Part shown: in pieces, positions 2,278-13,713 of the stretch | Numbering within the stretch: the stretch's first letter is position 1 | Layout of the letters: the number at the start of each line of letters is the position of its first letter | Assembly (NCBI RefSeq): GCF_018398935.1 | Contig: NZ_CP074694.1 | Location: forward strand, 5,430,001-5,462,000 | Reading direction: 5' to 3' | DNA: 32,000 nucleotides | Source of the DNA: Telmatocola sphagniphila | GTDB lineage: Bacteria; Planctomycetota; Planctomycetia; Gemmatales; Gemmataceae | Position numbers and translations under genes: made by a program | Notes under the pieces: generated by a model | Database searches by the model: none | Seen by the model: only the letters and a program-made list of their open reading frames with translations | What the model was told of the DNA's origin: nothing

Positions 2278-2495
2278 GGAAACTCCTGGAGAGTAAGGAT
2301 CGGAAAATCTTCAACCGAGGAAGGTAAGGCCATCGTACTTCGGAGTGAGCGAGATACAAGCAAAAAATACGGGAGGGATTTACCGGACTATGATCCGCTC
2401 GCCGAGGAAACGCGAATTGCTAAACTGGCATAGCTGAGATAATTTGGAAAGTGCCGGCACGAAGTCGGCACGGCACGTATTTTCAGGAAGCTACC

Positions 2496-4049
2496 ATGTC
2501 TGCCGCTTTGCCGCCGCTTCAGGTGTACAGCACGCTGACCCGCAAAAAAGAGATCTTCCCCAAGATTCCCGGCGAAGCAGTCACCATGTACGTCTGCGGA
2601 CCCACCGTTTACAAGCCGAGCCACATCGGCCATATGGTCGGGCCGATCATCTTCGATACCGTCAAACGCTATCTCAATTATCTGGGCTACGACGTGAAGT
2701 GGGTCGTCAACATCACCGATGTCGACGATAAGCTGATTGCCCGGGCCGCCGAGAGCAAGACCACGGTCGCCGAGCTGGCCCAGAAGATGACGGCCGATTA
2801 TTTCGATTGCCTTAAGAAGCTGAATGTTACGGGCATTGATCATTTCCCTAAGGCCACCGAATATATCCCGGCCATGATCGACACGATCAGCAAATTGATC
2901 GAAAAAGGGGTCGCTTACGATGCCGGGGGCGATGTCTATTTCAACGTATCCCAGTTCAAGGATTACGGGAAACTGTGCGGCTTCGATCCCGATGCTTTGG
3001 AAGCGGGCAGCCGGATCGAAGTGAGCGGTAAGAAGAAGAATCCGGGCGATTTTGCCCTCTGGAAAGCGGCCAAACCGGGCGAACCCGCCTGGAAATCCCC
3101 CTGGGGTGAAGGCCGGCCCGGCTGGCACATCGAATGCACCTGCATGGCCATGGATCAACTGGGTGAAACCATCGATATCCACGGTGGCGGGCTGGATCTC
3201 CGCTTCCCGCACCACGAAAACGAACTGGCCCAGAGCGAAGCCTACTCCGGCAAACCGTTTGCCAAGATCTGGATGCACAACGGCCTCTTGAAGCTCGGCT
3301 CGGGCAAGATGGCCGGTTCCATCGGCAACGTGCTGAATGTGGCCGATGCATTGAAACATGTGGGTGGTGAGGTGTTGCGGTTCTTCATGCTCAACACGCA
3401 CTATCGCAGCCCGATCGACCTGGGGGAATGGGACCCTCGCGATAAAGATGCTTCCCCGATTCCATCGGGACTGGAGGCCGTCAAAAAATCGTATGAGAAC
3501 TTCTCGCGTTTCGCCGAGCGGTATCAGCGGATCACCGGCAAGAGTTTTTATGCTCTGGAAGCGCCCACGAAGGCTCGCGAAAAGACCTTCCTCAACGCTC
3601 AATTCGGTGAACTTTATAGCCGGTTCCGCGAGTTGATGAACGACGACTTCAACACCGGCGGTGCCTGCGGGGTACTCTTCGAATTGATCACGGCGTTGAA
3701 TAAACTGGCCGATTCCGCGAAACTGGAAGATCCCAAAGCGGATGAAACTCAAAAGCCCGCATTCCTCGAAGGGGCGCTGCTTCTCAAAGAGTTATCGCAG
3801 ATTTTGGGACTATTCTTTGAAGAGCCCAAGGCGGCGACGCTGGGGGGCGACGACAAACTGGTCGCCGGATTGATGCAACTGTTGATCGAACTCCGGGGTA
3901 ATCTGCGCACTGAAGCCAAGAAGCTGGAAAAGGGCAACCCGGCCGTGAAGGTGATGTTCGATCAGACCGACCTGATTCGCAAGAAACTGGCGGAACTAGG
4001 CGTGGTGATGGAGGATCGCGCCGGCGGGACGACATGGAAGGTGGGCTAG
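2496..4049 (+). CDS. cysS: Cysteine--tRNA ligase
   Basis: 'CGPTVYKPSHIGHMVGP' (HIGH), 'GWHIECTCM', 'HGGGLDLRFPHHENE', and the KMSKS-position loop 'GKMAGSIGN'. Start placed at ATG 2496 (MSAALPPLQVYSTL...) rather than the upstream in-frame ATG 2451. Confidence 0.97.
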   Translation: MSAALPPLQVYSTLTRKKEIFPKIPGEAVTMYVCGPTVYKPSHIGHMVGPIIFDTVKRYLNYLGYDVKWVVNITDVDDKLIARAAESKTTVAELAQKMTADYFDCLKKLNVTGIDHFPKATEYIPAMIDTISKLIEKGVAYDAGGDVYFNVSQFKDYGKLCGFDPDALEAGSRIEVSGKKKNPGDFALWKAAKPGEPAWKSPWGEGRPGWHIECTCMAMDQLGETIDIHGGGLDLRFPHHENELAQSEAYSGKPFAKIWMHNGLLKLGSGKMAGSIGNVLNVADALKHVGGEVLRFFMLNTHYRSPIDLGEWDPRDKDASPIPSGLEAVKKSYENFSRFAERYQRITGKSFYALEAPTKAREKTFLNAQFGELYSRFRELMNDDFNTGGACGVLFELITALNKLADSAKLEDPKADETQKPAFLEGALLLKELSQILGLFFEEPKAATLGGDDKLVAGLMQLLIELRGNLRTEAKKLEKGNPAVKVMFDQTDLIRKKLAELGVVMEDRAGGTTWKVG

Positions 4050-4114
4050 GAACCTGGATTGAGTTGGCACTGTCGCTGAGATAAGATAATTAAATCGGCA
4101 TTTGAGCTAGTACT

Positions 4115-4399
4115 ATGAGTATCACAATCCATTTACCCGAGGGCACGGAAACCAAACTCCGCCAGAAAGCGGAGCTAGCGGGCGTGTCTATTGAACGCTA
4201 TTTGACGAATTTGGCCGAACTCGATCTGTCTGGCGAAAGCAGAACCTTCACTAGAAAATCCTTCGATGAAATTCTGGCACCGGCTCGGCAAAGTTTTGTC
4301 GAATCTGGTGATTCGGAAGCCGAGTTGACTCGCGTTTTTGAGGCAGCTCGTAACGAAGTCTGGTCCGAGAAACAAAAGACTGGCCTACCCACGGAATGA
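4115..4399 (+). CDS. Ribbon-helix-helix-type antitoxin-like protein
   Basis: The N-terminus 'MSITIHLPEGTETKLRQKAELAGVSIERYLTNL' has a strand-helix-helix pattern. Its stop overlaps the start of the PIN ORF (ATGA at 4396-4399). Confidence 0.65.
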   Translation: MSITIHLPEGTETKLRQKAELAGVSIERYLTNLAELDLSGESRTFTRKSFDEILAPARQSFVESGDSEAELTRVFEAARNEVWSEKQKTGLPTE

Positions 4400-4899
4400 T
4401 TTCGAAAAGCCCAAAAGTCGTTTTCGATTGCATGATGTTTTTGCAAGCCGCCTTGAATCCTTCAGGGCCAGCTGCCGCGTGTCTCCGTGTATTGGAAAAT
4501 CAGCTGATTCGAGTCCTTGTCACACGGGAAATTCTCGAAGAAATTGAGCAGACGCTACGCAAGCCCCTCATTCAGACAAGATACCCAAGACTAACGGAAA
4601 CTGTCATCCTGGAATTCATCGAACGAATTATCGAACTAGTCGAAATTCGACCTCCGGTTGCAAAACGATTCACTTATATACGGGATCCCAAAGATGAGCC
4701 TTACATAAATTTGGCGATAGCGGAGGACGCCAACTATCTCGTCAGTCGCGATCGAGATCTTTTGGACTTGGCAAAAATCGATTATCCCGATGCGGCGCTT
4801 CTCAGAAGAGAAGCGCCTAATTTGAATATCCTCGAGCCCATTGAGTTTTTGAATACTATTCGGGACAACTTGCGACTCCGCGAACAATTCGGACAATAA
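4396..4899 (+). CDS. PIN-domain toxin-like protein (PIN_3-type putative TA toxin)
   Basis: 'VVFDCMMFLQAAL...' at the N-terminus and 'DPKDEPYINLAIAEDANYLVSRDRDLLDL' match the acidic-residue layout of PIN_3-family toxins. 4-nt translational coupling with the upstream RHH ORF. Confidence 0.7.
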   Translation: MISKSPKVVFDCMMFLQAALNPSGPAAACLRVLENQLIRVLVTREILEEIEQTLRKPLIQTRYPRLTETVILEFIERIIELVEIRPPVAKRFTYIRDPKDEPYINLAIAEDANYLVSRDRDLLDLAKIDYPDAALLRREAPNLNILEPIEFLNTIRDNLRLREQFGQ

Positions 4900-4906
4900 A
4901 GCATTA

Positions 4907-5422
4907 ATGCTCATCCTCGGCATCGATCCCGGTCTGAATACCACCGGCTATGGTCTGCTCGAATACTCCACCGGGAAAATCCGACTGGTGGAAGCCGGGG
5001 TGGTGCGCTCGCTCCCCTCCAAAAAACAGTCCGATCTGGGTCTTCGGCTCAAAAGTCTGTTCGAGGGAATTTCGGAAATTGTCGATCAGTACAAACCGGA
5101 AGCCATGGCCATCGAACAACTTTACTCCCACTATGCCCATCCGCGCACGGCCATCATCATGGGCCATGCCCGGGGGGCCCTGCTGCTGGCCGCCGGGATG
5201 AAAAATATTCCCGTTCACCACTTCAAGGCGACGCAGATAAAAAAGACCATCACTGGTCACGGCCACGCCAGCAAGGAGCAGATTCAGGCGACCGTTACCC
5301 GGGAACTGGGACTGCTGAAAGCACCCGAACCCTACGATGTCACCGATGCCCTCGCGGTAGCGCTGTGCTTCGTATTTTCCCGAAAAATGACTGAACAGAC
5401 CTCTCGAAAGCGGGCGATATGA
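4907..5422 (+). CDS. ruvC: Crossover junction endodeoxyribonuclease RuvC
   Basis: 'MLILGIDPGLNTTGYGLLE', 'AMAIEQLY' and 'DVTDALAVALC' are RuvC RNase-H-fold catalytic blocks. Followed by ruvA and ruvB. Confidence 0.95.
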   Translation: MLILGIDPGLNTTGYGLLEYSTGKIRLVEAGVVRSLPSKKQSDLGLRLKSLFEGISEIVDQYKPEAMAIEQLYSHYAHPRTAIIMGHARGALLLAAGMKNIPVHHFKATQIKKTITGHGHASKEQIQATVTRELGLLKAPEPYDVTDALAVALCFVFSRKMTEQTSRKRAI

Positions 5423-6060
5423 TAACCAAGATGACGGGCATTCTGACCCGGGTCCTCGACGATGAGTGCCGGGTGCAAATCGGCCCGTTCGAATATCAGG
5501 TGATGATTCCGGAGTATCTCCGCCGCAACATTCAAACCAAGACGGATGAGGAAATCACGCTGCACATCAGCGAATACCTGGAAGGTTCGCAGATGTCCAA
5601 CCGGCTGATCCCTCGACGCATCGGCTTTTTGAGCGAACTCGAACTGGAGTTTTTCGATCTCTTCTGCACCGTGGACAAAATCGGCGCACGCAAGGCATTA
5701 AAAGCTCTCGGCCGGCCGATCCGCGAAATTGCCGAGGCGATCCAGCGCAGCGATGCCAAATGGCTGACCACGCTGGCGGGCATCGGCAAAACCTCCGCCG
5801 AGCAGATCATCGCCACGCTCAAAAGTAAGGTGACCAAGTTCACGCTATTTTCGGAGGGTACTTTCGGCTCAGCCCCCGAACCGCTGGGCGCCGGGATTGA
5901 TCCTCAGGTGGTCGATGATTCGTACGCCGCGCTGACCAATCTGGGGATGAATCCCTCCGAAGCGCGGGATCGGATCGATCAGGTATTGAAATCGGGGCAG
6001 AAACCGGCTACGGTACAAGAGTTCATTAGTTTGGCGTTTGCGGTGGGGAAGAAGGGATGA
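5419..6060 (+). CDS. ruvA: Holliday junction DNA helicase subunit RuvA
   Basis: 'MITKMTGILTRV...' OB-fold N-terminus. HhH region 'LCTVDKIGARKALKAL' and 'LAGIGKTSAEQII'. C-terminal domain III 'ALTNLGMNPSEARDRIDQV'. ATGA overlap with the ruvC stop. Confidence 0.92.
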   Translation: MITKMTGILTRVLDDECRVQIGPFEYQVMIPEYLRRNIQTKTDEEITLHISEYLEGSQMSNRLIPRRIGFLSELELEFFDLFCTVDKIGARKALKALGRPIREIAEAIQRSDAKWLTTLAGIGKTSAEQIIATLKSKVTKFTLFSEGTFGSAPEPLGAGIDPQVVDDSYAALTNLGMNPSEARDRIDQVLKSGQKPATVQEFISLAFAVGKKG

Positions 6061-6338
6061 CTTTAAACATTGAACTGAGCGAAGAGAAGCTATTAGCTCT
6101 TCAGAATTTGGCTGCGGAACAAAACACGACGATAGAGCACTTACTGGAAACGATGATTGAACGAGTTCTCGTTCACAAAAGCCAAGTTCAAAAAGTGGGT
6201 GAAAGCTTGGAAGCGAAGAACTCGGAACTTTATAAGCGGCTTGCGGTGAATGACGTCAGTCAGGAAGTGTTTGAAAAATTTAAGGACAGAGCGTTTAAAG
6301 ACCATACCGAGACATTAAAACGTTTGGCCGATAGCTAG
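6057..6338 (+). CDS. Small RHH-like hypothetical protein inserted between ruvA and ruvB
   Basis: 93 aa. The start overlaps the ruvA stop (ATGA 6057-6060) after the purine-rich 'GGGGAAGAAGGG'. The N-terminus 'MTLNIELSEEKLLALQNLAAEQNTTIEHLLETMIERVL' resembles an RHH fold. The gene is AT-richer than its neighbours. No partner toxin ORF is visible. Confidence 0.5.
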   Translation: MTLNIELSEEKLLALQNLAAEQNTTIEHLLETMIERVLVHKSQVQKVGESLEAKNSELYKRLAVNDVSQEVFEKFKDRAFKDHTETLKRLADS

Positions 6339-6377
6339 TCCGCTGAGCTCTGAAATTGCACCTTTTTTGAAAGCCGC

Positions 6378-7400
6378 ATGCCACGCGAAACCATTATCTC
6401 CGGCACTACTGAACCCGACGACCGCAAGCGCGATGCGGCCCTGCGTCCGAAGCTCCTGCGCGAAGTCATCGGCCAGAAAAAAGTGGCTCAGCGATTGGGC
6501 ATTGCCGTCAACGCTTCTCGCAAAACCAAGGAACCCCTCGGTCATATTCTGTTTGACGGTCCACCCGGGCTGGGCAAAACGACTTTTGCCACCGTGCTGC
6601 CCAACGAGTTGGGAACCAGCATTCAAATGACTTCCGGCCCGGCCCTCTCCAAACAGGCCGATCTGCTGCCCTATCTGACCAATCTTGAAGAAGGTTCGAT
6701 TCTCTTCATCGATGAAATCCACCGGATGCCGCGGGTCGTCGAAGAGTTCATCTACCCGGCCATGGAAGATTTCCGCATCGATCTGGTGCTCGGTGATGGT
6801 GTGAATGCCCGTACGATTTCGATGAATCTCAAGCGATTCACGCTGATCGGGGCCACCACCCGCAGCGGCATGCTCTCATCGCCGATGCGTGATCGCTTCA
6901 AGATGCAGGAGCATCTCGATTTTTACACGATCAACGAACTGGCGGAGATCGTCCGAGTGAATGCCCGAAAGTTGGATACGAAAATCAGCGAGGAAGCGGC
7001 TCTGGAACTCGCCCGCCGCAGCCGGGGTACGCCGCGCATCGCCAACAGTCGATTGTCGTGGGTCAGAAATTTTGCCATCAGCGAAGCGGACGGCTCGATA
7101 TCCATGGAGATTGCCAGACGGGCGCTCGATATGGCCGAGGTCGATTCGGAAGGGTTGGACAAGCAGGATCGCCGGTATCTGGAAACCCTCATCGATGTGT
7201 TCGGGGGCGGACCTACGGGCGTGGAAGCGATGGCCGCGACAATGAATATTCCGAGCGATACACTCAGCGATGAAGTCGAGCCCTTTCTGCTCCGAGAGCA
7301 GTACATTGTCCGCACCCCTCGGGGCCGGCTGGCCACGCAAAAAGGGTTTCTGGTCGTCGGCCGCAAGCAATCGACGGACGGCAGCAGCCTGTTCGAATAG
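6378..7400 (+). CDS. ruvB: Holliday junction DNA helicase RuvB
   Basis: Walker A 'GPPGLGKTT', Walker B 'ILFIDEIHR', 'LIGATTRSGMLSSPMRDRF', and a winged-helix C-terminus 'EPFLLREQYIVRTPRGR'. Confidence 0.97.
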   Translation: MPRETIISGTTEPDDRKRDAALRPKLLREVIGQKKVAQRLGIAVNASRKTKEPLGHILFDGPPGLGKTTFATVLPNELGTSIQMTSGPALSKQADLLPYLTNLEEGSILFIDEIHRMPRVVEEFIYPAMEDFRIDLVLGDGVNARTISMNLKRFTLIGATTRSGMLSSPMRDRFKMQEHLDFYTINELAEIVRVNARKLDTKISEEAALELARRSRGTPRIANSRLSWVRNFAISEADGSISMEIARRALDMAEVDSEGLDKQDRRYLETLIDVFGGGPTGVEAMAATMNIPSDTLSDEVEPFLLREQYIVRTPRGRLATQKGFLVVGRKQSTDGSSLFE

Positions 7401-7506: not shown

Positions 7507-8388
7507 ATGGAAATCCAGCAACTTCGATACTTCGCCCGCGCGGCGGAGTTGTCCAGTTTCACGCGCGCCGCCGAGGCTTGCTTCATAACGCAGCCGACGC
7601 TTAGTCAGCAGATTCTCAAATTGGAACAGGAACTGGGCCAGCCGCTCTTCGAGCGCCTGGGGCGAAGTGTGAAACTCACCGAAGCGGGCAAGATCCTCAA
7701 AGAAAGAGCCGATCAGATTCTTGCTCTCATGGAGGATGCCGCGGCCCGCATTACCGATCAGCCCGACGCGGGCCGACTGGTGATCGGGGCGATTCCCACC
7801 ATTGCTCCCTATTTATTGCCCCGGCTGATCGACCGCTTTTCCAAACTGGTGCCCAAGGCCGATTTGGAAATCGTCGAAGATGTTACGCCGGTATTGCTGA
7901 AGAAGTGCCAGTCCGGCGAAGTCGATCTGGCTTTCATGGCCTTGCCGCTGGAAGCAAGTGGTCTGAAAATCAAAAAACTCTTTACCGAGAAGCTCCGTTT
8001 AGTCATGAAGCGCGGTCATCCTCTGGCCGCGAAAGCGTGCGTCTCGCTCGACGCGGCGATCCAGGAGCCGTTTCTATTACTGCACGATGCGCATTGTCTG
8101 GCCGAGAGTACGATCAGTTACTGCCGGCAGAAAAATGTGATACCGCTGGGTACTTCCCGGCTGAGTCAATTGAGTACGATTATCGAGTTGGTGGCCTTGG
8201 GGCAGGGGGTGACGTTGGTGCCCGAAATGGCGGTACCCAGGCATATTAACAATGGCTGCGCATACCGACAGCTCGATGGCGAGCAGCCGATGCGGACCGT
8301 AGTCCTGATCTGGAATGATTATCGGTTCGCCACGAAGTTGTTCACGCGATTTGTCAAATGGGCGGAACAGGAGCTTGCGAAAAAATGA
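7507..8388 (+). CDS. LysR-family transcriptional regulator, OxyR-like
   Basis: LysR HTH 'LRYFARAAELSSFTRAAEACFITQPTLSQQILKLEQELG'. 'HDAHCLAESTISYC' places two Cys residues (197 and 206) nine residues apart after a His, the same spacing as the OxyR redox pair. Confidence 0.88.
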   Translation: MEIQQLRYFARAAELSSFTRAAEACFITQPTLSQQILKLEQELGQPLFERLGRSVKLTEAGKILKERADQILALMEDAAARITDQPDAGRLVIGAIPTIAPYLLPRLIDRFSKLVPKADLEIVEDVTPVLLKKCQSGEVDLAFMALPLEASGLKIKKLFTEKLRLVMKRGHPLAAKACVSLDAAIQEPFLLLHDAHCLAESTISYCRQKNVIPLGTSRLSQLSTIIELVALGQGVTLVPEMAVPRHINNGCAYRQLDGEQPMRTVVLIWNDYRFATKLFTRFVKWAEQELAKK

Positions 8389-8464: not shown

Positions 8465-9604
8465 CTATGCCAGGATTTCCTTCAACGCCCCGGCCAGCAG
8501 ATCGATATCGGCTTCGGTGTTAAATGGTCCGGGGCTGACCCGCACCAGACCATCCGGATAGGATTTGAACGCTTTGTGAATGTACGGCGCGCAGTGGAGA
8601 CCGGGCCGGATGGCGATATCGAAGGCCTGATCCAGAATGCCACCGATCTCCGCGGCCGGTAACGCTTCGGTAAAGAAGCTGAGGGTGCCCACCCGCCGCG
8701 ACATATCCCGATGGCCGACGATCGTGAACTGGCCGATTTCATCCAGGTGTTTCCAGAGCCGTTCGACCAGTTCGACTTCGTGCTGGTGAATCTTCTTCAG
8801 GCCCTGTTCCTGCACCCACTGCAGCCCGGCGATCAGCCCAGCCACACCGAGCACGTTCGGCGTGCCGCCTTCGAGGAAATAGGGATAATCTTTCGGCTGA
8901 GTCTCGCTCGAGGAGTCGCCGCCGGTACCCCCTTCGCGCCAGGGATTCACATGCACCCCGGGAGCGACATAGAGCACCCCGACGCCCGTGGGGGCAAACA
9001 AACCTTTGTGTCCCGGCAGGGCCATTAGATCGATGTTCGCGGCCTGAACGTCGATCGGTAGCACACCAGCGGTCTGAGCGGCATCGACCAGAAATAAGAC
9101 GTTCTTTTCCCGGGTAATCTTGCCGATCTCCTCGATGGGTTGGGTAGTCCCCACCACATTGCTGCCATGCGAAATTCCGACCAGTCGCGTCTTCGGAGTG
9201 ATGGCCTTCGCAACCGTTTGCGGATCAATGGACCCCTGCCCATCGGACGGGATACGGGTCCACTCGATAACCCCGGCCAGTTCCAACGCGCGTAACGGCC
9301 GGCTCATGGAATTGTGTTCCATGTCGCTGGTGATCACATGATCACCCGGCTTAAGCACCCCCTTGATGGCCATGTTCAGGGCATCGGTGCAGTTCAGAGT
9401 GAAGATGAAGCGTTCCGGACCTTTGCCGTTGAAGAACTGATTCAGACGATGCCGGCCATCCGCGAGTGTATGTTCGGAAGCGAGAGCCATTTTGTGGCCT
9501 GCCCGTCCCGGATTGGCGAGCGAGTTGCGCGCGTAGCTGTCGAGAGCCTTGTAAACCGACTCGGGTTTGGGGAATGTTGTCGCAGCGTTATCGAGGTAGA
9601 TCAT
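8465..9604 (-). CDS. Class V aminotransferase-fold cysteine desulfurase family protein
   Basis: 'MIYLDNAATTFPKP' N-terminus, PLP-lysine block 'LPGHKGLFAPTGVGVLYV', and an active-site Cys loop 'IRPGLHCAPYIH'. Confidence 0.85.
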   Translation of the reverse strand: MIYLDNAATTFPKPESVYKALDSYARNSLANPGRAGHKMALASEHTLADGRHRLNQFFNGKGPERFIFTLNCTDALNMAIKGVLKPGDHVITSDMEHNSMSRPLRALELAGVIEWTRIPSDGQGSIDPQTVAKAITPKTRLVGISHGSNVVGTTQPIEEIGKITREKNVLFLVDAAQTAGVLPIDVQAANIDLMALPGHKGLFAPTGVGVLYVAPGVHVNPWREGGTGGDSSSETQPKDYPYFLEGGTPNVLGVAGLIAGLQWVQEQGLKKIHQHEVELVERLWKHLDEIGQFTIVGHRDMSRRVGTLSFFTEALPAAEIGGILDQAFDIAIRPGLHCAPYIHKAFKSYPDGLVRVSPGPFNTEADIDLLAGALKEILA

Positions 9605-9652
9605 TGAAGGAGTTCAGGGGAACTTAACGAGTAATTGGGTCGTTCATTGGGA

Positions 9653-9931
9653 TCAAATATTCTCTTCATCCCAGCTTATTTGAATAATTTCGAGTATGTA
9701 TACTGCCCGATGGGTGAAGTCGATGTGGTAGCAAAACCTCAGTAAGCCGAAATCATGCGTGTACAAGCCTTCAGAATGGTACTTACCAATCGAATCGGGA
9801 TGTCTCGAGAGAGCTTTATTAGCTATGTTTTCACAGCGGGTAATTTCATTTTTATCTGCTGCCGCATTATAGATTCTTGCCAAATCGAGATCGGCTCTTT
9901 TTTCCCAGTGGACGATAAAAGGGGGGTTCAC
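9653..9931 (-). CDS. RelE/ParE-superfamily toxin-like protein
   Basis: 'FIVHWEKRADLDLARIYN...' and the C-terminal '...HRAVYILEI' follow the ParE-like pattern. The preferred start is GTG 9931, which overlaps the upstream ORF's stop (GTGA). The track's ATG 9949 would give a 22-nt overlap. Confidence 0.5.
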   Translation of the reverse strand: MNPPFIVHWEKRADLDLARIYNAAADKNEITRCENIANKALSRHPDSIGKYHSEGLYTHDFGLLRFCYHIDFTHRAVYILEIIQISWDEENI

Positions 9932-10221
9932 TTTTCGTCCTCGGCCCAAAGTTTTTCCATAAACGCGAGAAGCTCTCCATCGGACATTGGAGTTCCTCGC
10001 TTCTCCAACTCTGCTTTCAGCAATGTCTGATGCTTGCGTACTTTCTCCGTGCTGATACCTTTAGTGGGAGCCAGCCGGTGCTGACGAAGCCGTTCCAGGG
10101 CGCGGTGAATTGAAGCGTCCGCTTTCACAATTTCCTGACCGTTGGCATCGACGACGCGCAACTGATCATTGGAATTCCGAAACTGCTCGGTTTGCTCTTC
10201 TGTTAATCGGATGGTAATCAT
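9928..10221 (-). CDS. Putative antitoxin partner (family not recognised)
   Basis: 97-aa ORF directly upstream of, and translationally coupled to, the ParE-like ORF. Begins 'MITIRLTEEQTEQF'. AT-richer than flanking genes. A TATAAT-like hexamer lies about 45 nt upstream on the minus strand. Confidence 0.45.
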   Translation of the reverse strand: MITIRLTEEQTEQFRNSNDQLRVVDANGQEIVKADASIHRALERLRQHRLAPTKGISTEKVRKHQTLLKAELEKRGTPMSDGELLAFMEKLWAEDEK

Positions 10222-10289
10222 AGGCTGTGCCCTTTCGGGTGCTACAAGAAATCCCTTCCTAATTATTATAACTGATCCGCACTTCCCTG

Positions 10290-11339
10290 TTAATGCCCGA
10301 TGTACTTCGAGTACAAGATACGTGCTTTTTCGATGTCATCGGTTCCCTTGATGATCGCCCGGCCATCGGGGAACACCGTGAAGTTGTAACTCTCCACATC
10401 GAACTTCAGCAAGAACTTATTGAAACTGACATTCCCGGATGAAACGAGGTTCTTGGAAAGATCCTCGAAATTCAGTTTCACGCCGTTGCGGTTGCTCACC
10501 TGCACGCTGTTGCGGCCGCATAGGCTCACGGCCTGGGAGCCCTGCATGCCTTCCAGCCATTCGAAGCGGCGATGCTTACAGCAGGGGCAATCGACCTTGC
10601 CCTTCAGTGGGGCGATCTTAATCCGGCGATTGGTGTTTTCCCACATGTCGAGATAGATCAACTCGCGATTGATCGCGGCGGTCTTTCCGGCCAGAATTTT
10701 GAAGGCTTCCAGCGCCTGATAGCTGGCGATCACGCTGACCACCGGGCCGAGTACGCCGGCCGTTTCGCAGGTGCCGACATCGCCTGGACCGGGGGCCGCT
10801 TCGAAAACGCAGCGCAGACACGGGGTTTCCCCCGGCAGAATAGTCATGCTTTGGCCGTGCGAGCCGATCACGCCGCCGAAGACCCACGGTTTGTTCAACT
10901 TCACCGATGTATCGTTGATCAGATAGCGGATCTCGAAATTATCGGTGCCATCGAGTATGACATCGACGTCCCGGCAGAGCTCTTCGATATTGGTTCGATC
11001 GATATCGGCGACCACCGGTTCGATGGTGACATTCGAATTGACTGCTCGTAACTTATTTGCGGCGGCGACCGCCTTGGGAAGGTTGGCGGCCACATCGGCT
11101 TCGTCGAAGAGTACCTGCCGCTGCAGATTCGAAGGTTCTATGAAATCGCGATCGATAATGCGAACGAACCCGACTCCGCCACGAACCAGGTGATTGGCGA
11201 GAACGGTGCCGAGTGCACCGCAGCCGCACAGGGTGACGCGGCCGTTGATCAGTTTTTCCTGACCCGCTTTGCCAATGGGGCCAAAGCGCATCTGCCGGCT
11301 GTAGCGTTCGGTCAGGTTTTCATCGAGTTTACGTTGCAT
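10290..11339 (-). CDS. ThiF/MoeB/HesA-family adenylyltransferase (E1-like), no rhodanese domain
   Basis: 'RYSRQMRFGPIGKAGQEKL', nucleotide loop 'LCGCGALGTVLANHLVRGGVG', 'DRDFIEPSNLQRQVLF', and zinc motifs 'CLRC' and 'CPCC'. The C-terminal ~90-aa domain ending 'FPDGRAIIKGTDDIEKARILYSKYIG' is as in Bacillus-type MoeB. Confidence 0.9.
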   Translation of the reverse strand: MQRKLDENLTERYSRQMRFGPIGKAGQEKLINGRVTLCGCGALGTVLANHLVRGGVGFVRIIDRDFIEPSNLQRQVLFDEADVAANLPKAVAAANKLRAVNSNVTIEPVVADIDRTNIEELCRDVDVILDGTDNFEIRYLINDTSVKLNKPWVFGGVIGSHGQSMTILPGETPCLRCVFEAAPGPGDVGTCETAGVLGPVVSVIASYQALEAFKILAGKTAAINRELIYLDMWENTNRRIKIAPLKGKVDCPCCKHRRFEWLEGMQGSQAVSLCGRNSVQVSNRNGVKLNFEDLSKNLVSSGNVSFNKFLLKFDVESYNFTVFPDGRAIIKGTDDIEKARILYSKYIGH

Positions 11340-11381
11340 CAGTAGTTCCGAATCTGAAATCGGCCGGCAGGGCGGCTGGGG

Positions 11382-11699
11382 TTATTTCACCCCGTTGGTT
11401 TCCAAAAAGTCTTCGAGGAATTCCACCACTTCGCTGGGCCACTTTTCCTGCTTAGCAAAACCTACCAGCGTAATTACATCTTCTTTCGCGCGGACCAGGT
11501 CGGGCCCTTTAAGCCGTTGCAGATAAGTGGCCATGTATTCCAGAGATTCCGTGGCCGCGACATCGTTGATGATGTCCTCGGCCGAACCTTCCAGGAGTAC
11601 GTAGCCGTGCAGCATGGCCAGGAACATCGGCGAGATGCCAAGTTCCTCCGGGATCAAGGGCAACAGTGCGACGCCTTCGGGGACTTCTTCCTCGGACAT
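11382..11699 (-). CDS. Hypothetical acidic 105-aa protein (no Cys) within the sulfur-carrier operon
   Basis: An ORF with normal GC sits between the carrier and E1 genes on the same strand. No motif recognised. Confidence 0.55.
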   Translation of the reverse strand: MSEEEVPEGVALLPLIPEELGISPMFLAMLHGYVLLEGSAEDIINDVAATESLEYMATYLQRLKGPDLVRAKEDVITLVGFAKQEKWPSEVVEFLEDFLETNGVK

Positions 11700-11728
11700 G
11701 ACAAGCTCTCTCGGGCCGTCCGAATTTT

Positions 11729-11775
11729 CGTACCTTCGCCGGGAACGATCCCGGCGAAACCTGAAATCAGGTACG
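11729..11775 (-). other. Strong intercistronic stem-loop between the carrier gene and the 105-aa ORF
   Basis: Minus strand: CGUACC-[11 nt]-UUCGCCGGGA-UCGU-UCCCGGCGAA-GGUACG. This gives a perfect 10-bp inner helix (11735-11744 / 11749-11758) plus a 6-bp outer helix (11729-11734 / 11770-11775). No U-tract follows on either strand. Confidence 0.6.
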
Positions 11776-11811
11776 AAGTCGGCAGACTATGCAGTTGATT
11801 TTATTCGGACT

Positions 11812-12084
11812 TCAGCCGCCCGCGACGGCAGGGATCAAAGCGACGAGGTCGCCCTCCTTCACCGGGCTTTGCAAGTCGTCCAGAAAGCGAATATCTTCAT
11901 CGTTCAGATAGATATTCACATGCATCTGAAGCTTGCCCTCTTTGAAGAGCTTCGGACCGATCGCCGGATGCTTGACGATCAGGTCTTTGAGAACGGCCTC
12001 AATGGTGCCGCCGCTGGTTTCCACATCGGACAGCCCGCCGGTGGCTTCTCGCATCGGCGGGGGGATCTGGACTTTCACAGACAT
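11812..12084 (-). CDS. MoaD/ThiS-family ubiquitin-like sulfur-carrier protein, CysO-like, ending in Gly-Gly
   Basis: 90 aa ending '...LVALIPAVAGG'. 'MHVNIYLNDEDIRF' closely parallels the 'VNIYVNDEDVRF' block, and the 'PAVAGG' terminus, that I recall for Mycobacterium tuberculosis CysO. Confidence 0.85.
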   Translation of the reverse strand: MSVKVQIPPPMREATGGLSDVETSGGTIEAVLKDLIVKHPAIGPKLFKEGKLQMHVNIYLNDEDIRFLDDLQSPVKEGDLVALIPAVAGG

Positions 12085-12118
12085 GAGACTAATTCCGTTT
12101 CTTTCTAAAGCTTCGCTT

Positions 12119-13378
12119 TTACGACAGCACCGGTACCGAATCGACCAGCGGGATGAAATCGTCCAGCGTCGGACGGATCACAACTGGCTGCTCGACCGCT
12201 TCGAAGATGGCGTCCTGCGTCTTCAAACCGTTGCCGGTGATGCAGATGACGATTTCTTCGTTACGGGGAATTCGGCCCTGTTCAATTAGTTTACGGCAAA
12301 CGGCCAGAGTGGTGCCGCCGGCTGTCTCGGCGAAGATCCCTTCGGTCTGTGCCAGCAGCTGCATGGCTTCCACAATTTCCGTATCGCTCACATCTTCGGC
12401 CCAGCCGCCGGTTTCCCGAATCAGCTTGGCGGAGAACGGTCCATCGGCCGGGTCGCCGATCGCCAGACTCTTGCAAATGGTGTTCGGCTTGCGGATCGGC
12501 TTGTGCCGGTCGCGATTGCTTTTCACGCAGTCGGAAATCGGATTGCAGCCGGTGGCCTGCGCGCCGTACATCTTGGTGGTTGGCGCTTTGTCGATCAGGC
12601 CGACACGATAGAGTTCGTGAAAAGCTTTGTGCAGCTTGCCGATGAGACTTCCCCCGGCCATCGGTGCGACAACGTGCTGCGGCACGCGCCAGCCGAGGTC
12701 TTCGGCGATTTCGAAGCCCATGCTCTTGGAGCCTTCGGCGTAGAAGGGCCGCAGGTTGATGTTCACGAAGCCCCAGCCGTATTTGAAGGCCACCTGAGTG
12801 CAGAGGCGATTGACTTCGTCGTAGGTGCCCTGCACGGCAATCACTTTCGCGCCGTAGATACTAGTGCCCAGAATCTTGGCACGTTCGAGATCGGCGGGAA
12901 CCAGAATATAGGCTTCCAGTCCGGCGGCGGCGGCGTTAGCGGCCACACTGTTAGCCAGGTTGCCGGTCGAAGCGCAGCCGACGGTTCGGAAGCCGAATTC
13001 GCGGGCTTTGCTCAGCGCGACCGAAACCACCCGATCCTTGAAGGAAAGAGTGGGGAAATTCACGGCGTCGTTCTTGATCCAGAGTTTTTCCACGCCCAAG
13101 GCATCGGCCAGCCGGTCAGCCCGAATCAGCGGGGTGCCACCGACCTGCGGTCCCACGGTCGGTTCGCCGTCCAGAGGTAAGAGTTCCCGATAGCGCCACA
13201 TGTTGCGCGGCCGCATCTCGATTTTCTCCCGGCTGATGCAGGGCTGGATGGCGTCGTAATCGTACACGACTTCCAGAGGTCCGAAATCATCCGAGCAGAA
13301 ATTGACGGGGGATTTGGGGTAGAGCTTGCCGCAGACTTTACACTGCAGGCCCTTCACGAAATCGGGAACAAACGGCAC
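12119..13378 (-). CDS. Threonine synthase-family PLP enzyme (ThrC-like, possible homocysteine-forming MetM-type enzyme)
   Basis: N-terminal zinc-ribbon-like 'CKVCGKLYPKSPVNFC', PLP-lysine block 'FPTLSFKDRVVSVALS', 'GCASTGNLANSVAANAAAAG', and a glycine-rich loop 'APMAGGSLIGK'. GTG start at 13378 preceded by GAGAGGA. A SAM-I riboswitch lies upstream. Confidence 0.85.
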   Translation of the reverse strand: MPFVPDFVKGLQCKVCGKLYPKSPVNFCSDDFGPLEVVYDYDAIQPCISREKIEMRPRNMWRYRELLPLDGEPTVGPQVGGTPLIRADRLADALGVEKLWIKNDAVNFPTLSFKDRVVSVALSKAREFGFRTVGCASTGNLANSVAANAAAAGLEAYILVPADLERAKILGTSIYGAKVIAVQGTYDEVNRLCTQVAFKYGWGFVNINLRPFYAEGSKSMGFEIAEDLGWRVPQHVVAPMAGGSLIGKLHKAFHELYRVGLIDKAPTTKMYGAQATGCNPISDCVKSNRDRHKPIRKPNTICKSLAIGDPADGPFSAKLIRETGGWAEDVSDTEIVEAMQLLAQTEGIFAETAGGTTLAVCRKLIEQGRIPRNEEIVICITGNGLKTQDAIFEAVEQPVVIRPTLDDFIPLVDSVPVLS

Positions 13379-13383
13379 GGTAA

Positions 13384-13519
13384 TTCCTCTCTCTCACGGA
13401 GTTCATCGATAACAAGAGAGAGTATCAACCAGATAGAGCTTCAGTAACTTCCACTGAAACTACTCAGAGATAAGAAGATGGTGCAGAACGATCCGAAAGG
13501 TTTTCGAAGGTCTGGCACG
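13384..13519 (-). promoter_or_regulatory. Riboswitch expression platform with an SD-occluding helix
   Basis: Minus-strand CUCUCUCU (13422-13415) can pair with AGAGAGAG (13394-13387), which overlaps the GAGAGAGAGGAA Shine-Dalgarno region just upstream of GTG 13378. GCACCAUCUUCUUAUCUC (13484-13467) is largely complementary to the 3' P1 strand and its flank (13533-13515), giving an alternative anti-P1 helix. Confidence 0.55.
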
Positions 13520-13649
13520 ATCTTATCTTCCCCGGTCGCCCGGGCAGGAATTAGCACCAGCATCGAAAGCCAGAATTGAAATCTGGGGAGTTTTCGACCG
13601 GTTGCTGTGGCATCAAAGGGCCTGCGCCCTCCGCCACTCTGGATAAGAT
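13520..13649 (-). promoter_or_regulatory. SAM-I (S-box) riboswitch aptamer
   Basis: The minus strand reads AUCUUAUCCAGAGUGGCGGAGGGCGCAGGCCCUUUGAUGCCACAGCAACC...GGUGCUAAUUCCUGCCCGGGCGACCGGGGAAGAUAAGAU. P1 is AUCUUAUC/GAUAAGAU. P2 (UGGC/GCCA) carries a GGAGGG...UGAU kink-turn signature. P3 is extended (CCGG.UCGAAA / UUUCGA..CUGG with inner CCAGA/UCUGG). The conserved J3/4 is 'GGUGCUAAUUCCUGC'. P4 is CCCGG-GCGA-CCGGG. This aligns nearly position for position with the Thermoanaerobacter SAM-I aptamer sequence as I recall it. Confidence 0.9.
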
Positions 13650-13684
13650 ACTCTGGCGCGATGTTTACACATCACGATTTCACC

Positions 13685-13713
13685 ATATTACATTGCCCGT
13701 ACGAACTTGGCAA
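13685..13713 (-). promoter_or_regulatory. Putative sigma70-type promoter for the riboswitch operon
   Basis: Minus strand TTGCCA (13713-13708), a 17-nt spacer, then TAATAT (13690-13685), about 36 nt upstream of riboswitch P1. The promoter consensus in this lineage is uncertain. Confidence 0.4.

Follow-up and report, generated by a model that had tools for sequence, protein, structure and literature searches.

We report that a probably SAM-repressed operon of the planctomycete Telmatocola sphagniphila (Gemmataceae), located on the minus strand of a 32,000-nt stretch of DNA (hereafter, the window), probably makes homocysteine with sulfur delivered as a protein thiocarboxylate, as in the MetM/MetO pathway. 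This pathway type is itself already known, being published and built into GapMind: in Streptomyces albulus, O-phosphohomoserine and MetO-thiocarboxylate are reported to yield homocysteine through MetM, a ThrC homologue described as “often misannotated”, whose gene is associated with a SAM riboswitch (Hasebe, Adachi, Maruyama, Hamano 2024, Appl Environ Microbiol 90:e01247-24). An earlier note made on this DNA from its letters had correctly stated that the Streptomyces pair uses O-phosphohomoserine; its claim of novelty went too far for the pathway type and holds for the planctomycete phylum and for the E1 and desulfurase encoded in the cluster. Also new here are the lack of a nearby Mec/JAMM gene and a lineage-specific four-helix accessory protein.

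The operon and its signals comprise, in minus-strand order:

13685-13713, minus strand: promoter-like site TTGCCA-17-TAATAT (consensus scan, 9/12 matches)
13520-13649, minus strand: SAM-I riboswitch aptamer (RF00162, full model 1-108)
13379-13519, minus strand: expression platform (folding)
12119-13378, minus strand: ThrC-family PLP enzyme, MetM-like, 419 aa (PALP, TIGR00260)
11812-12084, minus strand: CysO/MetO-type sulfur carrier, 90 aa, ending PAVAGG (ThiS family)
11382-11699, minus strand: Unk105, an acidic four-helix protein of 105 aa (no family match)
10290-11339, minus strand: ThiF/MoeB-type E1, PRK12475-like, 349 aa (ThiF family)
10265-10293, minus strand: sigma-70-like promoter match TTAACA-17-TATAAT (consensus scan, 11/12 matches)
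9928-10221 and 9653-9949, minus strand: overlapping pair of small ORFs, 97 and 98 aa (ORF calls)
8465-9604, minus strand: class-V cysteine desulfurase, SufS/CsdA-like, 379 aa (Aminotran_5, TIGR01977)

ORF calls together with Rfam, Pfam, and NCBIfam searches bore out the full list of features given in the earlier note, including the aptamer at exactly these coordinates, the CysO-like carrier of MoaD/ThiS fold with its GG end, the ThiF/MoeB-type E1 with two CxxC motifs and without rhodanese, and the class V desulfurase. Neighboring genes of the operon lie 34-112 nt apart in the window, and a scan for terminator-like sites on the minus strand found none inside the operon; both points speak for the homocysteine reading. 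The same one-strand order (ThrC-like enzyme, carrier, in some loci Unk105, E1, and desulfurase) recurs in 80 genomes of Gemmatales and Isosphaerales, and of the 77 loci with enough upstream sequence, 74 carry the SAM-I core motif ahead of the ThrC-like gene (core-motif scan), so that the arrangement is far beyond chance. The closest 120 database relatives, from Gemmataceae and other planctomycetes, share ~80% identity, which looks like a housekeeping function.

The leader carries the regulatory part of the argument. Scanned with Rfam, as the earlier note had proposed, the aptamer scored 80.2 bits against RF00162 (gathering score 44.4, E 1.4e-17), and a homologous aptamer was matched before the orthologous gene in 22/23 loci scanned; this leader is kept in two planctomycete orders, Gemmatales and Isosphaerales, and in the actinomycete Nonomuraea. 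TTGCCA-17-TAATAT, which precedes the aptamer by about 35 nt, is an only plausible promoter candidate, as promoter-like matches in the leader region overall were not above those in shuffles. The expression platform, as folded, holds an anti-P1 segment, CUUCUUAUCU, with complementarity to the 3' strand of P1, two hairpins, and a CUCUCUC/GAGAGAG hairpin over the Shine-Dalgarno sequence. Because this platform has no U-tract terminator, SAM probably acts on translation or through Rho. In folding, the P1 and anti-P1 conformers differ little in energy (-110.5 vs -111.4 kcal/mol), and thermodynamic modelling gave no SAM-dependent exposure of the Shine-Dalgarno sequence, which counts against the homocysteine reading.

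The sulfur supply would rest on the E1 and the desulfurase, whose catalytic residues are conserved across orthologues, again in favor of homocysteine formation. The E1 matches the ThiF family at 241.4 bits and PRK12475 at 385.8 bits (below the cutoff of 510), has no rhodanese match in Pfam or NCBIfam, and aligns to E. coli ThiF through residue 254, including a cysteine at the position of the ThiF NCRTAGV motif. MoeZ, by comparison, is a rhodanese-fused E1. The two CxxC pairs of the planctomycete E1 (C174/C177 and C251/C254), along with C191 and C274, are invariant in 64/64 orthologues, and Cys274 sits in a C-terminal extension of ~95 aa common to Firmicutes MoeB/ThiF proteins of the PRK12475 type, with C274 and a DGR motif also found in Bacillus MoeB and in Cytobacillus and Staphylococcus ThiF. 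The desulfurase scores 298.7 bits against Aminotran_5 and 413.7 bits against TIGR01977 (cutoff 377 passed), and its PLP-lysine motif PGHK and active-site motif RPGLHCAP are conserved among 46 orthologues. In 45 other loci (of 80, in two orders) its gene comes after the E1 gene in the same orientation, and the two are directly adjacent in 19/46 loci having both, window included. An E1 and a desulfurase in one cluster imply cysteine-derived sulfur, and we predict that the desulfurase is the sulfur donor, as had been proposed before; the conserved linkage supports that proposal, while the argument first offered for it, that an E1 lacking rhodanese draws on the desulfurase, was sound in its premise and overstated in its inference, since the E1 has a conserved, cysteine-bearing C-terminal domain.

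This same linkage is what stands against the alternative in which a MetM/MetO-type route takes sulfur from free sulfide or an unlinked sulfurtransferase and leaves the desulfurase to general Fe-S or thio-cofactor supply, which we regard as unlikely. In its favor, about ten loci have no desulfurase despite >3 kb of sequence after the E1 (a point against the homocysteine reading as we state it), and variable insertions and an internal promoter part the desulfurase from the E1 in many genomes. In the window, the TTAACA-17-TATAAT match is strong, lies before the small-ORF pair, and may allow SAM-independent transcription of the small ORFs and desulfurase; it may thus uncouple the desulfurase from the riboswitch, which also weighs against our reading. 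Moreover, Krishnamoorthy and Begley reportedly found in 2011 that in Wolinella sulfide attacks the acyl-adenylate directly.

The small ORFs themselves have no family match of their own in Pfam or NCBIfam and are ~30% identical to pairs of small genes that occupy this site elsewhere, of which the toxin-like members match ParE weakly (E 0.007 and 0.13, below the Pfam cutoff). They were earlier called an inserted toxin-antitoxin pair; as E1 and desulfurase are directly adjacent in many of the loci, the pair is an insertion outside the core operon, and its identity as antitoxin and ParE-like toxin is weaker and stays putative. By contrast with this insertion, Unk105 is, by its occurrence, a conserved operon member in Gemmatales only: of the ~60 loci having it, nearly all place it between carrier and E1, and it is absent from Isosphaerales-type loci (L071-L082). 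It belongs to no Pfam or NCBIfam family and, in a set of 1.84 billion proteins, has only 185 cluster representatives; its AF2 model (pLDDT 86.5) has four helices, and no PDB structure matched this fold at E <= 0.001, the best E being 0.84.

The relationship of the 419-aa enzyme to threonine synthases bears on what it makes. A genuine threonine synthase, with the riboswitch balancing the O-phosphohomoserine branch point and carrier, E1, and desulfurase forming a separate adjacent pathway, would account for the passing of the TIGR00260 thrC cutoff (284.6 bits, cutoff 167.1), itself a point against homocysteine formation, and for the “threonine synthase” label that the protein bears in every annotation source; a Microcystis homologue beside a MetO-like gene also reportedly had ThrC and deaminase activities in vitro. 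The protein further matches PALP (245.7 bits) and PRK08197 (287.3 bits, below the cutoff of 303), holds LSFKDRV, has a Cys-rich N-terminal extension of ~55 aa, and is 34-40% identical to solved bacterial ThrCs and 28.7% to the plant enzyme. It is 50.9% identical to a Nonomuraea paralogue that is linked to a SAM-I riboswitch and lies beside a carrier gene; the Nonomuraea genome also has a canonical thrC at another place. Five motifs are constant in the canonical ThrCs compared (five solved enzymes plus the canonical one of Nonomuraea). The 419-aa protein and the Nonomuraea paralogue depart from all five and share the variant forms, and planctomycete orthologues keep the variants PTLSFKDRVV, STGNL, VNINLRPFYAEGSK, AGGSL, and KSLAIGDPADG with minor variation. 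A phylogeny of the kind called for earlier set the two apart from all canonical ThrCs tested in an NJ split with 100/100 bootstrap support, and a CysO-type carrier adjoins the ThrC-like gene in 71 loci. A SAM OFF-switch would suit a methionine-pathway gene, favoring a homocysteine role, and would be ill-suited to a threonine synthase because such an enzyme competes for O-phosphohomoserine: repressing it at high SAM would send more of this substrate to methionine, the opposite of sensible feedback. We thus consider a genuine threonine synthase very unlikely; judged by its sequence, the 419-aa protein is not a canonical one, and the earlier suggestion that it makes homocysteine rather than threonine fits tree, carrier, and conserved SAM-I leader best.

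The carrier, a ThiS-family protein (53.9 bits in Pfam) whose orthologues end in GG without extension in 68/71 cases, bears on the product as well. Among solved structures it comes nearest to CysO from Amycolatopsis (4n6e_B, 1.5e-20) and from M. tuberculosis (3dwg_C, 6.7e-18), proteins solved in complex with partner enzymes and acting in a 2-thiosugar pathway and in cysteine synthesis, and the nearest relatives of the E1 are Firmicutes ThiF/MoeB enzymes for thiamin and Moco, so that the cluster might produce cysteine, in the manner of CysM/CysO, or some other thiol or thio-metabolite, such as a cofactor or natural product, instead of homocysteine. Against this very improbable outcome, cysteine would be a futile product if sulfur comes from the linked cysteine desulfurase, the PLP partner is of the ThrC rather than the CysK/CysM family, ThiG, MoaE, or natural-product genes are not conserved near the loci, SAM-I control points to methionine/SAM metabolism, and the close identity among relatives looks housekeeping. 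Two points would suit a ubiquitin-like (SAMP/Urm1-type) conjugation system formed by carrier and E1: the carrier’s best NCBIfam match is SAMP1 (55 bits), and the Fimbriiglobus orthologue goes by “ubiquitin-like small modifier protein 1” at NCBI. Such a system is extremely improbable, as the SAMP1 score falls below the cutoff of 60, the carrier matches CysO much better, genes for a JAMM isopeptidase or an E2-like protein are not conserved near the loci, and the operon carries a PLP enzyme and a SAM riboswitch.

In the homocysteine route that we favor, the E1 would, by homology, adenylate the C-terminal Gly-Gly of the carrier. The desulfurase would take up sulfur from L-cysteine as an enzyme persulfide and pass it to the carrier acyl-adenylate, directly or via the conserved E1 cysteine C191 or C274, with reduction giving carrier-COSH; MoaD, ThiS, and TtuB are precedents for such a transfer, which the conserved linkage also suggests. 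The ThrC-like enzyme would then act on an activated homoserine, in all likelihood the O-phosphohomoserine that Streptomyces MetM uses, eliminate its leaving group, and add the carrier thiocarboxylate at C-gamma in place of water at C-beta. Homocysteine would be released and methylated to methionine, and plentiful SAM, binding the aptamer, would lower expression. The net reaction would be a cysteine-to-homocysteine transsulfuration on proteins without free sulfide, with Unk105 as a putative Gemmatales-specific accessory protein and the two small ORFs as an insertion. One point against this route is that no JAMM/Mec-type hydrolase gene is conserved within 10 kb in any of the 80 loci; the CysO and HcyS pathways are said, from work of the Begley laboratory, to need such a hydrolase to free the amino acid from the carrier.

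Among known systems, the cluster most resembles MetM/MetO of S. albulus as reported, with a ThrC-homologous PLP enzyme beside a ThiS/MoaD-fold carrier and a SAM riboswitch upstream, a minimal layout (SAM-I, ThrC-like enzyme, GG-terminal carrier) that Nonomuraea shares. The 419-aa protein is only ~51% identical to this actinobacterial proxy, the Nonomuraea gene standing in for S. albulus MetM in the proposed orthology. In GapMind’s description, Streptomyces relies on MoeZ as carrier-sulfur ligase and on Mec, whereas the planctomycete cluster encodes its own rhodanese-less PRK12475-type E1, adds a TIGR01977 cysteine desulfurase and, in Gemmatales, the 105-aa four-helix protein, lacks a Mec/JAMM gene within 10 kb, and has a carrier that would need no C-terminal trimming.

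The CysO/CysM/MoeZ/Mec system of Mycobacterium tuberculosis likewise pairs a GG-terminal CysO-type carrier with a phosphorylated amino-acid substrate and uses the thiocarboxylate as a sulfide equivalent, but its PLP enzyme, CysM, is of the CysK rather than the ThrC family, its product is cysteine, its E1 is rhodanese-fused, and it depends on a Mec hydrolase whose gene is part of the cluster. HcyS/HcyF/HcyD/MetY of Wolinella succinogenes, in which carrier and dedicated E1 are encoded with a homocysteine-forming PLP enzyme, shares the product, yet differs in using MetY (O-acetylhomoserine sulfhydrylase fold), sulfur from sulfite reduction, and the JAMM protease HcyD for carrier trimming and product release; we know of no SAM-I riboswitch or desulfurase in that system. 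Finally, Firmicutes MoeB/ThiF proteins of the PRK12475 type show 41-47% full-length similarity to the E1, including the C-terminal domain with its invariant LCGR cysteine and DGR motif; those enzymes are encoded alongside MoaD or ThiS in operons for Moco or thiazole, whereas the planctomycete E1, with its sub-cutoff PRK12475 score, appears to have been recruited to a methionine operon, where its partner is a CysO-type carrier.

All of the features that the earlier note had listed for this operon were recovered in place by Rfam matches, Pfam/NCBIfam family matches and ORFs. The genes lie on one strand with gaps of 34–112 nt between them, in the order SAM-I riboswitch, ThrC-like, carrier, Unk105, E1, two overlapping small ORFs, and desulfurase:

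About 35 nt upstream of the aptamer, same strand: promoter-like site, from a scan for such sites
13520-13649, minus strand: SAM-I aptamer (Rfam RF00162, 80.2 bits, gathering score 44.4, E 1.4e-17, model positions 1-108 of 108)
12119-13378, minus strand: ThrC-like, PLP enzyme of the threonine-synthase family
11812-12084, minus strand: carrier, CysO/MetO-type protein
11382-11699, minus strand: Unk105, 105-aa protein
10290-11339, minus strand: E1, ThiF/MoeB-type protein
9653-10221, minus strand: small ORFs
8465-9604, minus strand: desulfurase, class-V cysteine desulfurase

A scan of one genome per species, whose returns did not include the Telmatocola genome itself, yielded 80 loci from Gemmatales and Isosphaerales, and the order and strand of ThrC-like, carrier, Unk105, E1, and desulfurase are kept in them wherever the contig is long enough. 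Counting the window, the carrier was found at 71 loci, E1 at 65, Unk105 at 60, and the desulfurase at 46. Conserved genes within 10 kb of the cluster include neither a JAMM/Mec-type hydrolase nor a rhodanese protein at any of the 80 loci, and scanning every flanking ORF for JAMM and rhodanese motifs gave only scattered, non-conserved matches.

Elsewhere in the window, plus-strand positions 2451-7400 carry a housekeeping neighborhood of cysS (cysteinyl-tRNA synthetase), a PIN-domain gene, and then ruvC, ruvA, and ruvB, and a LysR-family regulator (7507-8388, plus strand) converges on the desulfurase; in other genomes, none of these neighbors is kept beside the operon. Plus-strand positions 3-1158 hold a reverse transcriptase/maturase ORF (RVT_1 4.1e-39, GIIM 1.5e-12) with a group II intron domain V/VI match in Rfam directly after it (1086-1158, 46 bits); together they represent the 3′ portion of a group II intron that the window start truncates.

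The SAM-I aptamer claimed in the earlier note, which had proposed an Rfam check, passed the RF00162 gathering threshold over its full length by covariance-model score. Orthologous leaders scored 47.7-87.6 bits against the same model, and the riboswitch lies immediately 5′ of the ThrC-like gene in 22 of 23 loci scanned with Rfam, the one miss having only 238 nt of upstream sequence. A search for the invariant core of the aptamer placed it ahead of the ThrC-like gene in 74 of the 77 loci whose upstream sequence reaches 350 nt or more, with a single match elsewhere. At one of the numbered loci from other genomes (L027, a MAG), the core (~8913) and the ThrC-like gene (at 10001) stand ~1.1 kb apart, the usual distance being 180-440 nt, and an insertion may separate them. 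The leader contains no U-tract terminator, and no terminator-like site was found on the minus strand inside the operon. In folding, a leader segment 3′ of the aptamer, CUUCUUAUCU, is able to pair with the P1 3′ strand, so that P1 and anti-P1 helices compete in two nearly isoenergetic conformers; the Shine-Dalgarno sequence is covered by a CUCUCUC/GAGAGAG hairpin in both, and state-specific folding of the leader gave no SAM-dependent unmasking of it. We predict a SAM-I control element of the OFF type; the folding gives no clear read-out. Automated start-codon calls in the other loci are unreliable. In Nonomuraea, a Shine-Dalgarno-like sequence lies within or adjoining the P1 3′ strand and the start codon follows 13 nt after the aptamer, which suggests direct translational control of the SAM-I-linked gene there.

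Family models assign the 419-aa ThrC-like protein to the threonine-synthase family of PLP enzymes (PALP 245.7 bits). It exceeds the cutoff of the TIGR00260 equivalog (284.6 bits, cutoff 167.1), falls just under that of PRK08197 (287.3 bits, cutoff 303), and is 100% identical to a Telmatocola sphagniphila protein annotated "threonine synthase"; its closest 120 database relatives are 77-93% identical, and those with names come from Gemmataceae or other planctomycetes. Membership of the CysK/CysM family was rejected (cysKM 43.7 bits vs a cutoff of 344), the protein belonging to the ThrC family. Cysteate synthase and threonine dehydratase were likewise rejected as identities, their scores of 61.6 and 84.7 bits falling far short of cutoffs of 325-379. 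Alignment to six canonical ThrCs (the solved Aquifex, Bacillus, Thermus, Mycobacterium, and Arabidopsis enzymes plus the canonical ThrC of Nonomuraea) identified five canonical motifs that are essentially identical in the five bacterial proteins, with slight deviations in the plant enzyme. None of the five active-site motifs is retained in the window protein, where all are replaced.

Active-site motifs in canonical ThrC, the planctomycete proteins, and the SAM-I-linked protein of Nonomuraea
Motif 1: canonical PTGSFKDRGM; planctomycete PTLSFKDRVV; Nonomuraea PTHSFKDRVV
Motif 2: canonical STGNT; planctomycete STGNL; Nonomuraea STGNL
Motif 3: canonical VN-SVNPxRxEGQKT; planctomycete VN[IV]NLRP[FY]YAEGSK; Nonomuraea same form as planctomycete
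Motif 4: canonical GNAGN; planctomycete AGGSL; Nonomuraea ASGSQ
Motif 5: canonical TAIRIGNPxSW; planctomycete KSLAIGDPADG; Nonomuraea KSLAIGNPADG

In the window protein, motif 3 reads NINLRPFYAEGSK in place of the canonical N-SVNPxRxEGQKT. Several positions within these motifs probably form part of the pocket for phosphate and substrate in Thermus ThrC. The five changes are candidate determinants of a shift from threonine synthase (water at C-beta) to homocysteine synthase (protein thiocarboxylate at C-gamma).

The comparison with Nonomuraea gerenzanensis, made on a chromosome filed among plasmid records, provided a stand-in for the Streptomyces albulus enzyme MetM. There, a SAM-I aptamer precedes a ThrC-like gene, whose product shares 50.9% identity with the window protein, and a 91-aa GG-terminal carrier comes next; a separate canonical thrC (54.8% identical to B. 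subtilis ThrC) lies elsewhere. A neighbor-joining tree that included this paralogue set the planctomycete and SAM-I-linked Nonomuraea proteins apart from everything else in the tree in 100 of 100 bootstraps, and this split, together with the five variant motifs, bears out the earlier view that the ThrC-like protein is not a canonical threonine synthase. No second ThrC homologue was found in any of the locus flanks. A haloarchaeal "thrC" on a Haladaptatus plasmid (L085, 3998-5236) shares a similar N-terminal Cys-rich extension and has neither motif set, so the extension is not diagnostic. That protein has a third set (PTGVLKDRAT, STGNA, GDGCT) and neighbors encoding D-aminoacylase, Zn-hydrolase, and serine/threonine dehydratase, and is possibly a further ThrC paralogue that has neofunctionalised.

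The 90-aa carrier, encoded 34 nt downstream of the ThrC-like gene, has a ThiS/MoaD fold and the C-terminus PAVAGG. Among solved structures it is closest to CysO from Amycolatopsis (4n6e_B, 1.5e-20) and CysO from M. tuberculosis (3dwg_C, 6.7e-18), with MoaD and SAMP proteins scoring far lower; the terminal residues are GG in 68 of 71 orthologues, and therefore C-terminal trimming is not needed.

E1 is a 349-aa ThiF-family protein with two CxxC pairs that aligns with E. coli ThiF through residue 254, including a cysteine at the ThiF NCRTAGV position. The earlier observation that it lacks a rhodanese domain held, in that no rhodanese match was obtained (MoeZ, by comparison, is a rhodanese-fused E1), but it left out a conserved extension bearing Cys274, a candidate sulfur-relay site. 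Across 64 orthologues C174, C177, C191, C251, and C254 are invariant, as is C274, which lies in an LCGRNxVQ motif within this ~95-aa C-terminal domain (residues 255-349; window 10290-10577, minus strand); an FxxDGRxxIxG motif is also present. No Pfam family matched residues 249-349 even at E ≤ 1, no solved homologue of the domain was found, and the fold of the domain is not readable from a single-sequence AF2 model (pLDDT 30). The PRK12475 MoeB/ThiF subfamily model aligned end to end at 385.8 bits, under its cutoff of 510. Bacillus MoeB and the ThiF proteins of Cytobacillus and Staphylococcus, which are located in Moco and thiazole operons, have the same extension with its Cys and DGR motif. 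Because these Firmicutes proteins share it, E1 is, judged by its sequence, a recruited member of a known, poorly understood E1 subfamily, whose C-terminal domain could be an unrecognised sulfur-relay domain.

Unk105 matched no Pfam or NCBIfam family. Its AF2 model, built with 14 homologues, is a confident four-helix bundle (pLDDT 86.5) with no meaningful PDB match, and a profile search of 1.84 billion representatives recovered only 185 relatives, nearly all of them stand-alone proteins of ~100-125 aa. It is absent from the Isosphaerales-type loci (L071-L082, including Singulisphaera and Tautonia) and is thus a Gemmatales-specific addition. Fusion to ankyrin repeats or a WGR domain occurs in a small number of homologues, and one gene call includes part of a ThiF domain; among distant homologues, P0289, P0385, P0360, and P0371 are fusions to ankyrin repeats, WGR, or a 220-aa C-terminal region of unknown type. 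Such fusions suggest a helical module of general protein interaction rather than one specific to sulfur, and what ties Unk105 to the pathway is solely its conserved place between carrier and E1.

The 379-aa desulfurase is of class V (TIGR01977 413.7 bits, above the cutoff of 377), with the PLP-lysine motif PGHK and the active-site motif RPGLHCAP conserved in orthologues. It directly adjoins E1 in 19 of 46 loci. Uma2-family endonuclease genes (22 loci; PF05685, 9.6e-28) and small ParE-like/antitoxin-like gene pairs (10-16 loci) have landed repeatedly in the operon gaps, above all in that between E1 and desulfurase; L003, L012, L024, L031, L050, and L059 are among the loci with insertions between E1 and desulfurase. 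The small ORFs of the window are ~30% identical to such pairs, have no Pfam or NCBIfam family match of their own, and are preceded by a near-consensus sigma-70 promoter match (TTAACA-17-TATAAT, 10293-10265, minus strand). Pfam does not place them in the type II toxin-antitoxin (ParDE-like) class; even in related pairs the toxin-like member stayed below the ParE_toxin gathering score (E 0.007 and 0.13; 17.3 and 13.3 bits, cutoff 23). In a Gemmataceae MAG (L008), the gap between Unk105 and E1 holds an inverted pair of Acido-Lenti-1 RNA matches (RF01687; 4614-4660, plus strand, and 4680-4726, minus strand; 45.4 bits each).

Comparative evidence supports the interpretation, put forward in the earlier note, that the ThrC-like enzyme would make homocysteine via a carrier thiocarboxylate. 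The presence of E1 and a cysteine desulfurase in the cluster suggests cysteine rather than sulfide as the source of sulfur. A fuller scheme, which we put forward tentatively and regard as rather doubtful in its entirety, is that Gemmatales and Isosphaerales carry out a self-contained, protein-mediated transsulfuration, with sulfur passing from cysteine to a desulfurase persulfide, to an E1-bound carrier acyl-adenylate, to carrier-COSH, and to homocysteine on the ThrC-like enzyme. It would operate without free sulfide, a rhodanese domain, or Mec/JAMM, the E1 Cys274 domain would be a persulfide relay, Unk105, none of whose known relatives has an assigned function, a new adaptor or specificity factor, and the route the main or only one to methionine. 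MetM/MetO was described only in 2024, in one genus, and the finding would extend it to a distant phylum, as a conserved version under riboswitch control. Annotations in that phylum uniformly call the enzyme "threonine synthase", a systematic error that the finding would correct, and the reconstruction of methionine biosynthesis in Planctomycetes would likely change. The in-cluster E1 and cysteine desulfurase offer a complete, testable parts list for carrier loading, and the absent Mec/JAMM hydrolase and conserved Unk105 raise directly testable mechanistic questions.

In the part of GapMind 2026 that describes MetM/MetO of S. albulus (Hasebe et al. 2024), O-phosphohomoserine and MetO-thiocarboxylate yield homocysteine, MoeZ and Mec are helper enzymes, and MetM, a homologue of ThrC, often carries a wrong annotation. 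A Microcystis paper places a SAM riboswitch upstream of S. albulus metM and homologues in cyanobacteria, with Microcystis ThrC reported as 51.6% identical to MetM. The planctomycete cluster resembles this system in its ThrC-family PLP enzyme from a clade apart from canonical threonine synthases, in the adjoining ThiS/MoaD-fold carrier with C-terminal Gly-Gly, and in the SAM riboswitch upstream of the ThrC-like gene. Unlike the S. albulus system with its MoeZ and Mec, it has an E1 without a rhodanese match and, over 80 loci, no conserved JAMM or rhodanese gene within 10 kb. It also differs from the CysO/CysM pathway, which has a CysK/CysM-family partner and Mec in the cluster, whereas the PLP partner here is of the ThrC family and no JAMM gene is nearby. 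Of the three papers mentioning MetM that full-text searches turned up, none describes a planctomycete version. Since GapMind 2026 and the Microcystis paper, in the parts concerned, describe MetM/MetO with a SAM riboswitch, the hypothesis of the earlier note is essentially this published pathway, and the planctomycete cluster is a new version of it.
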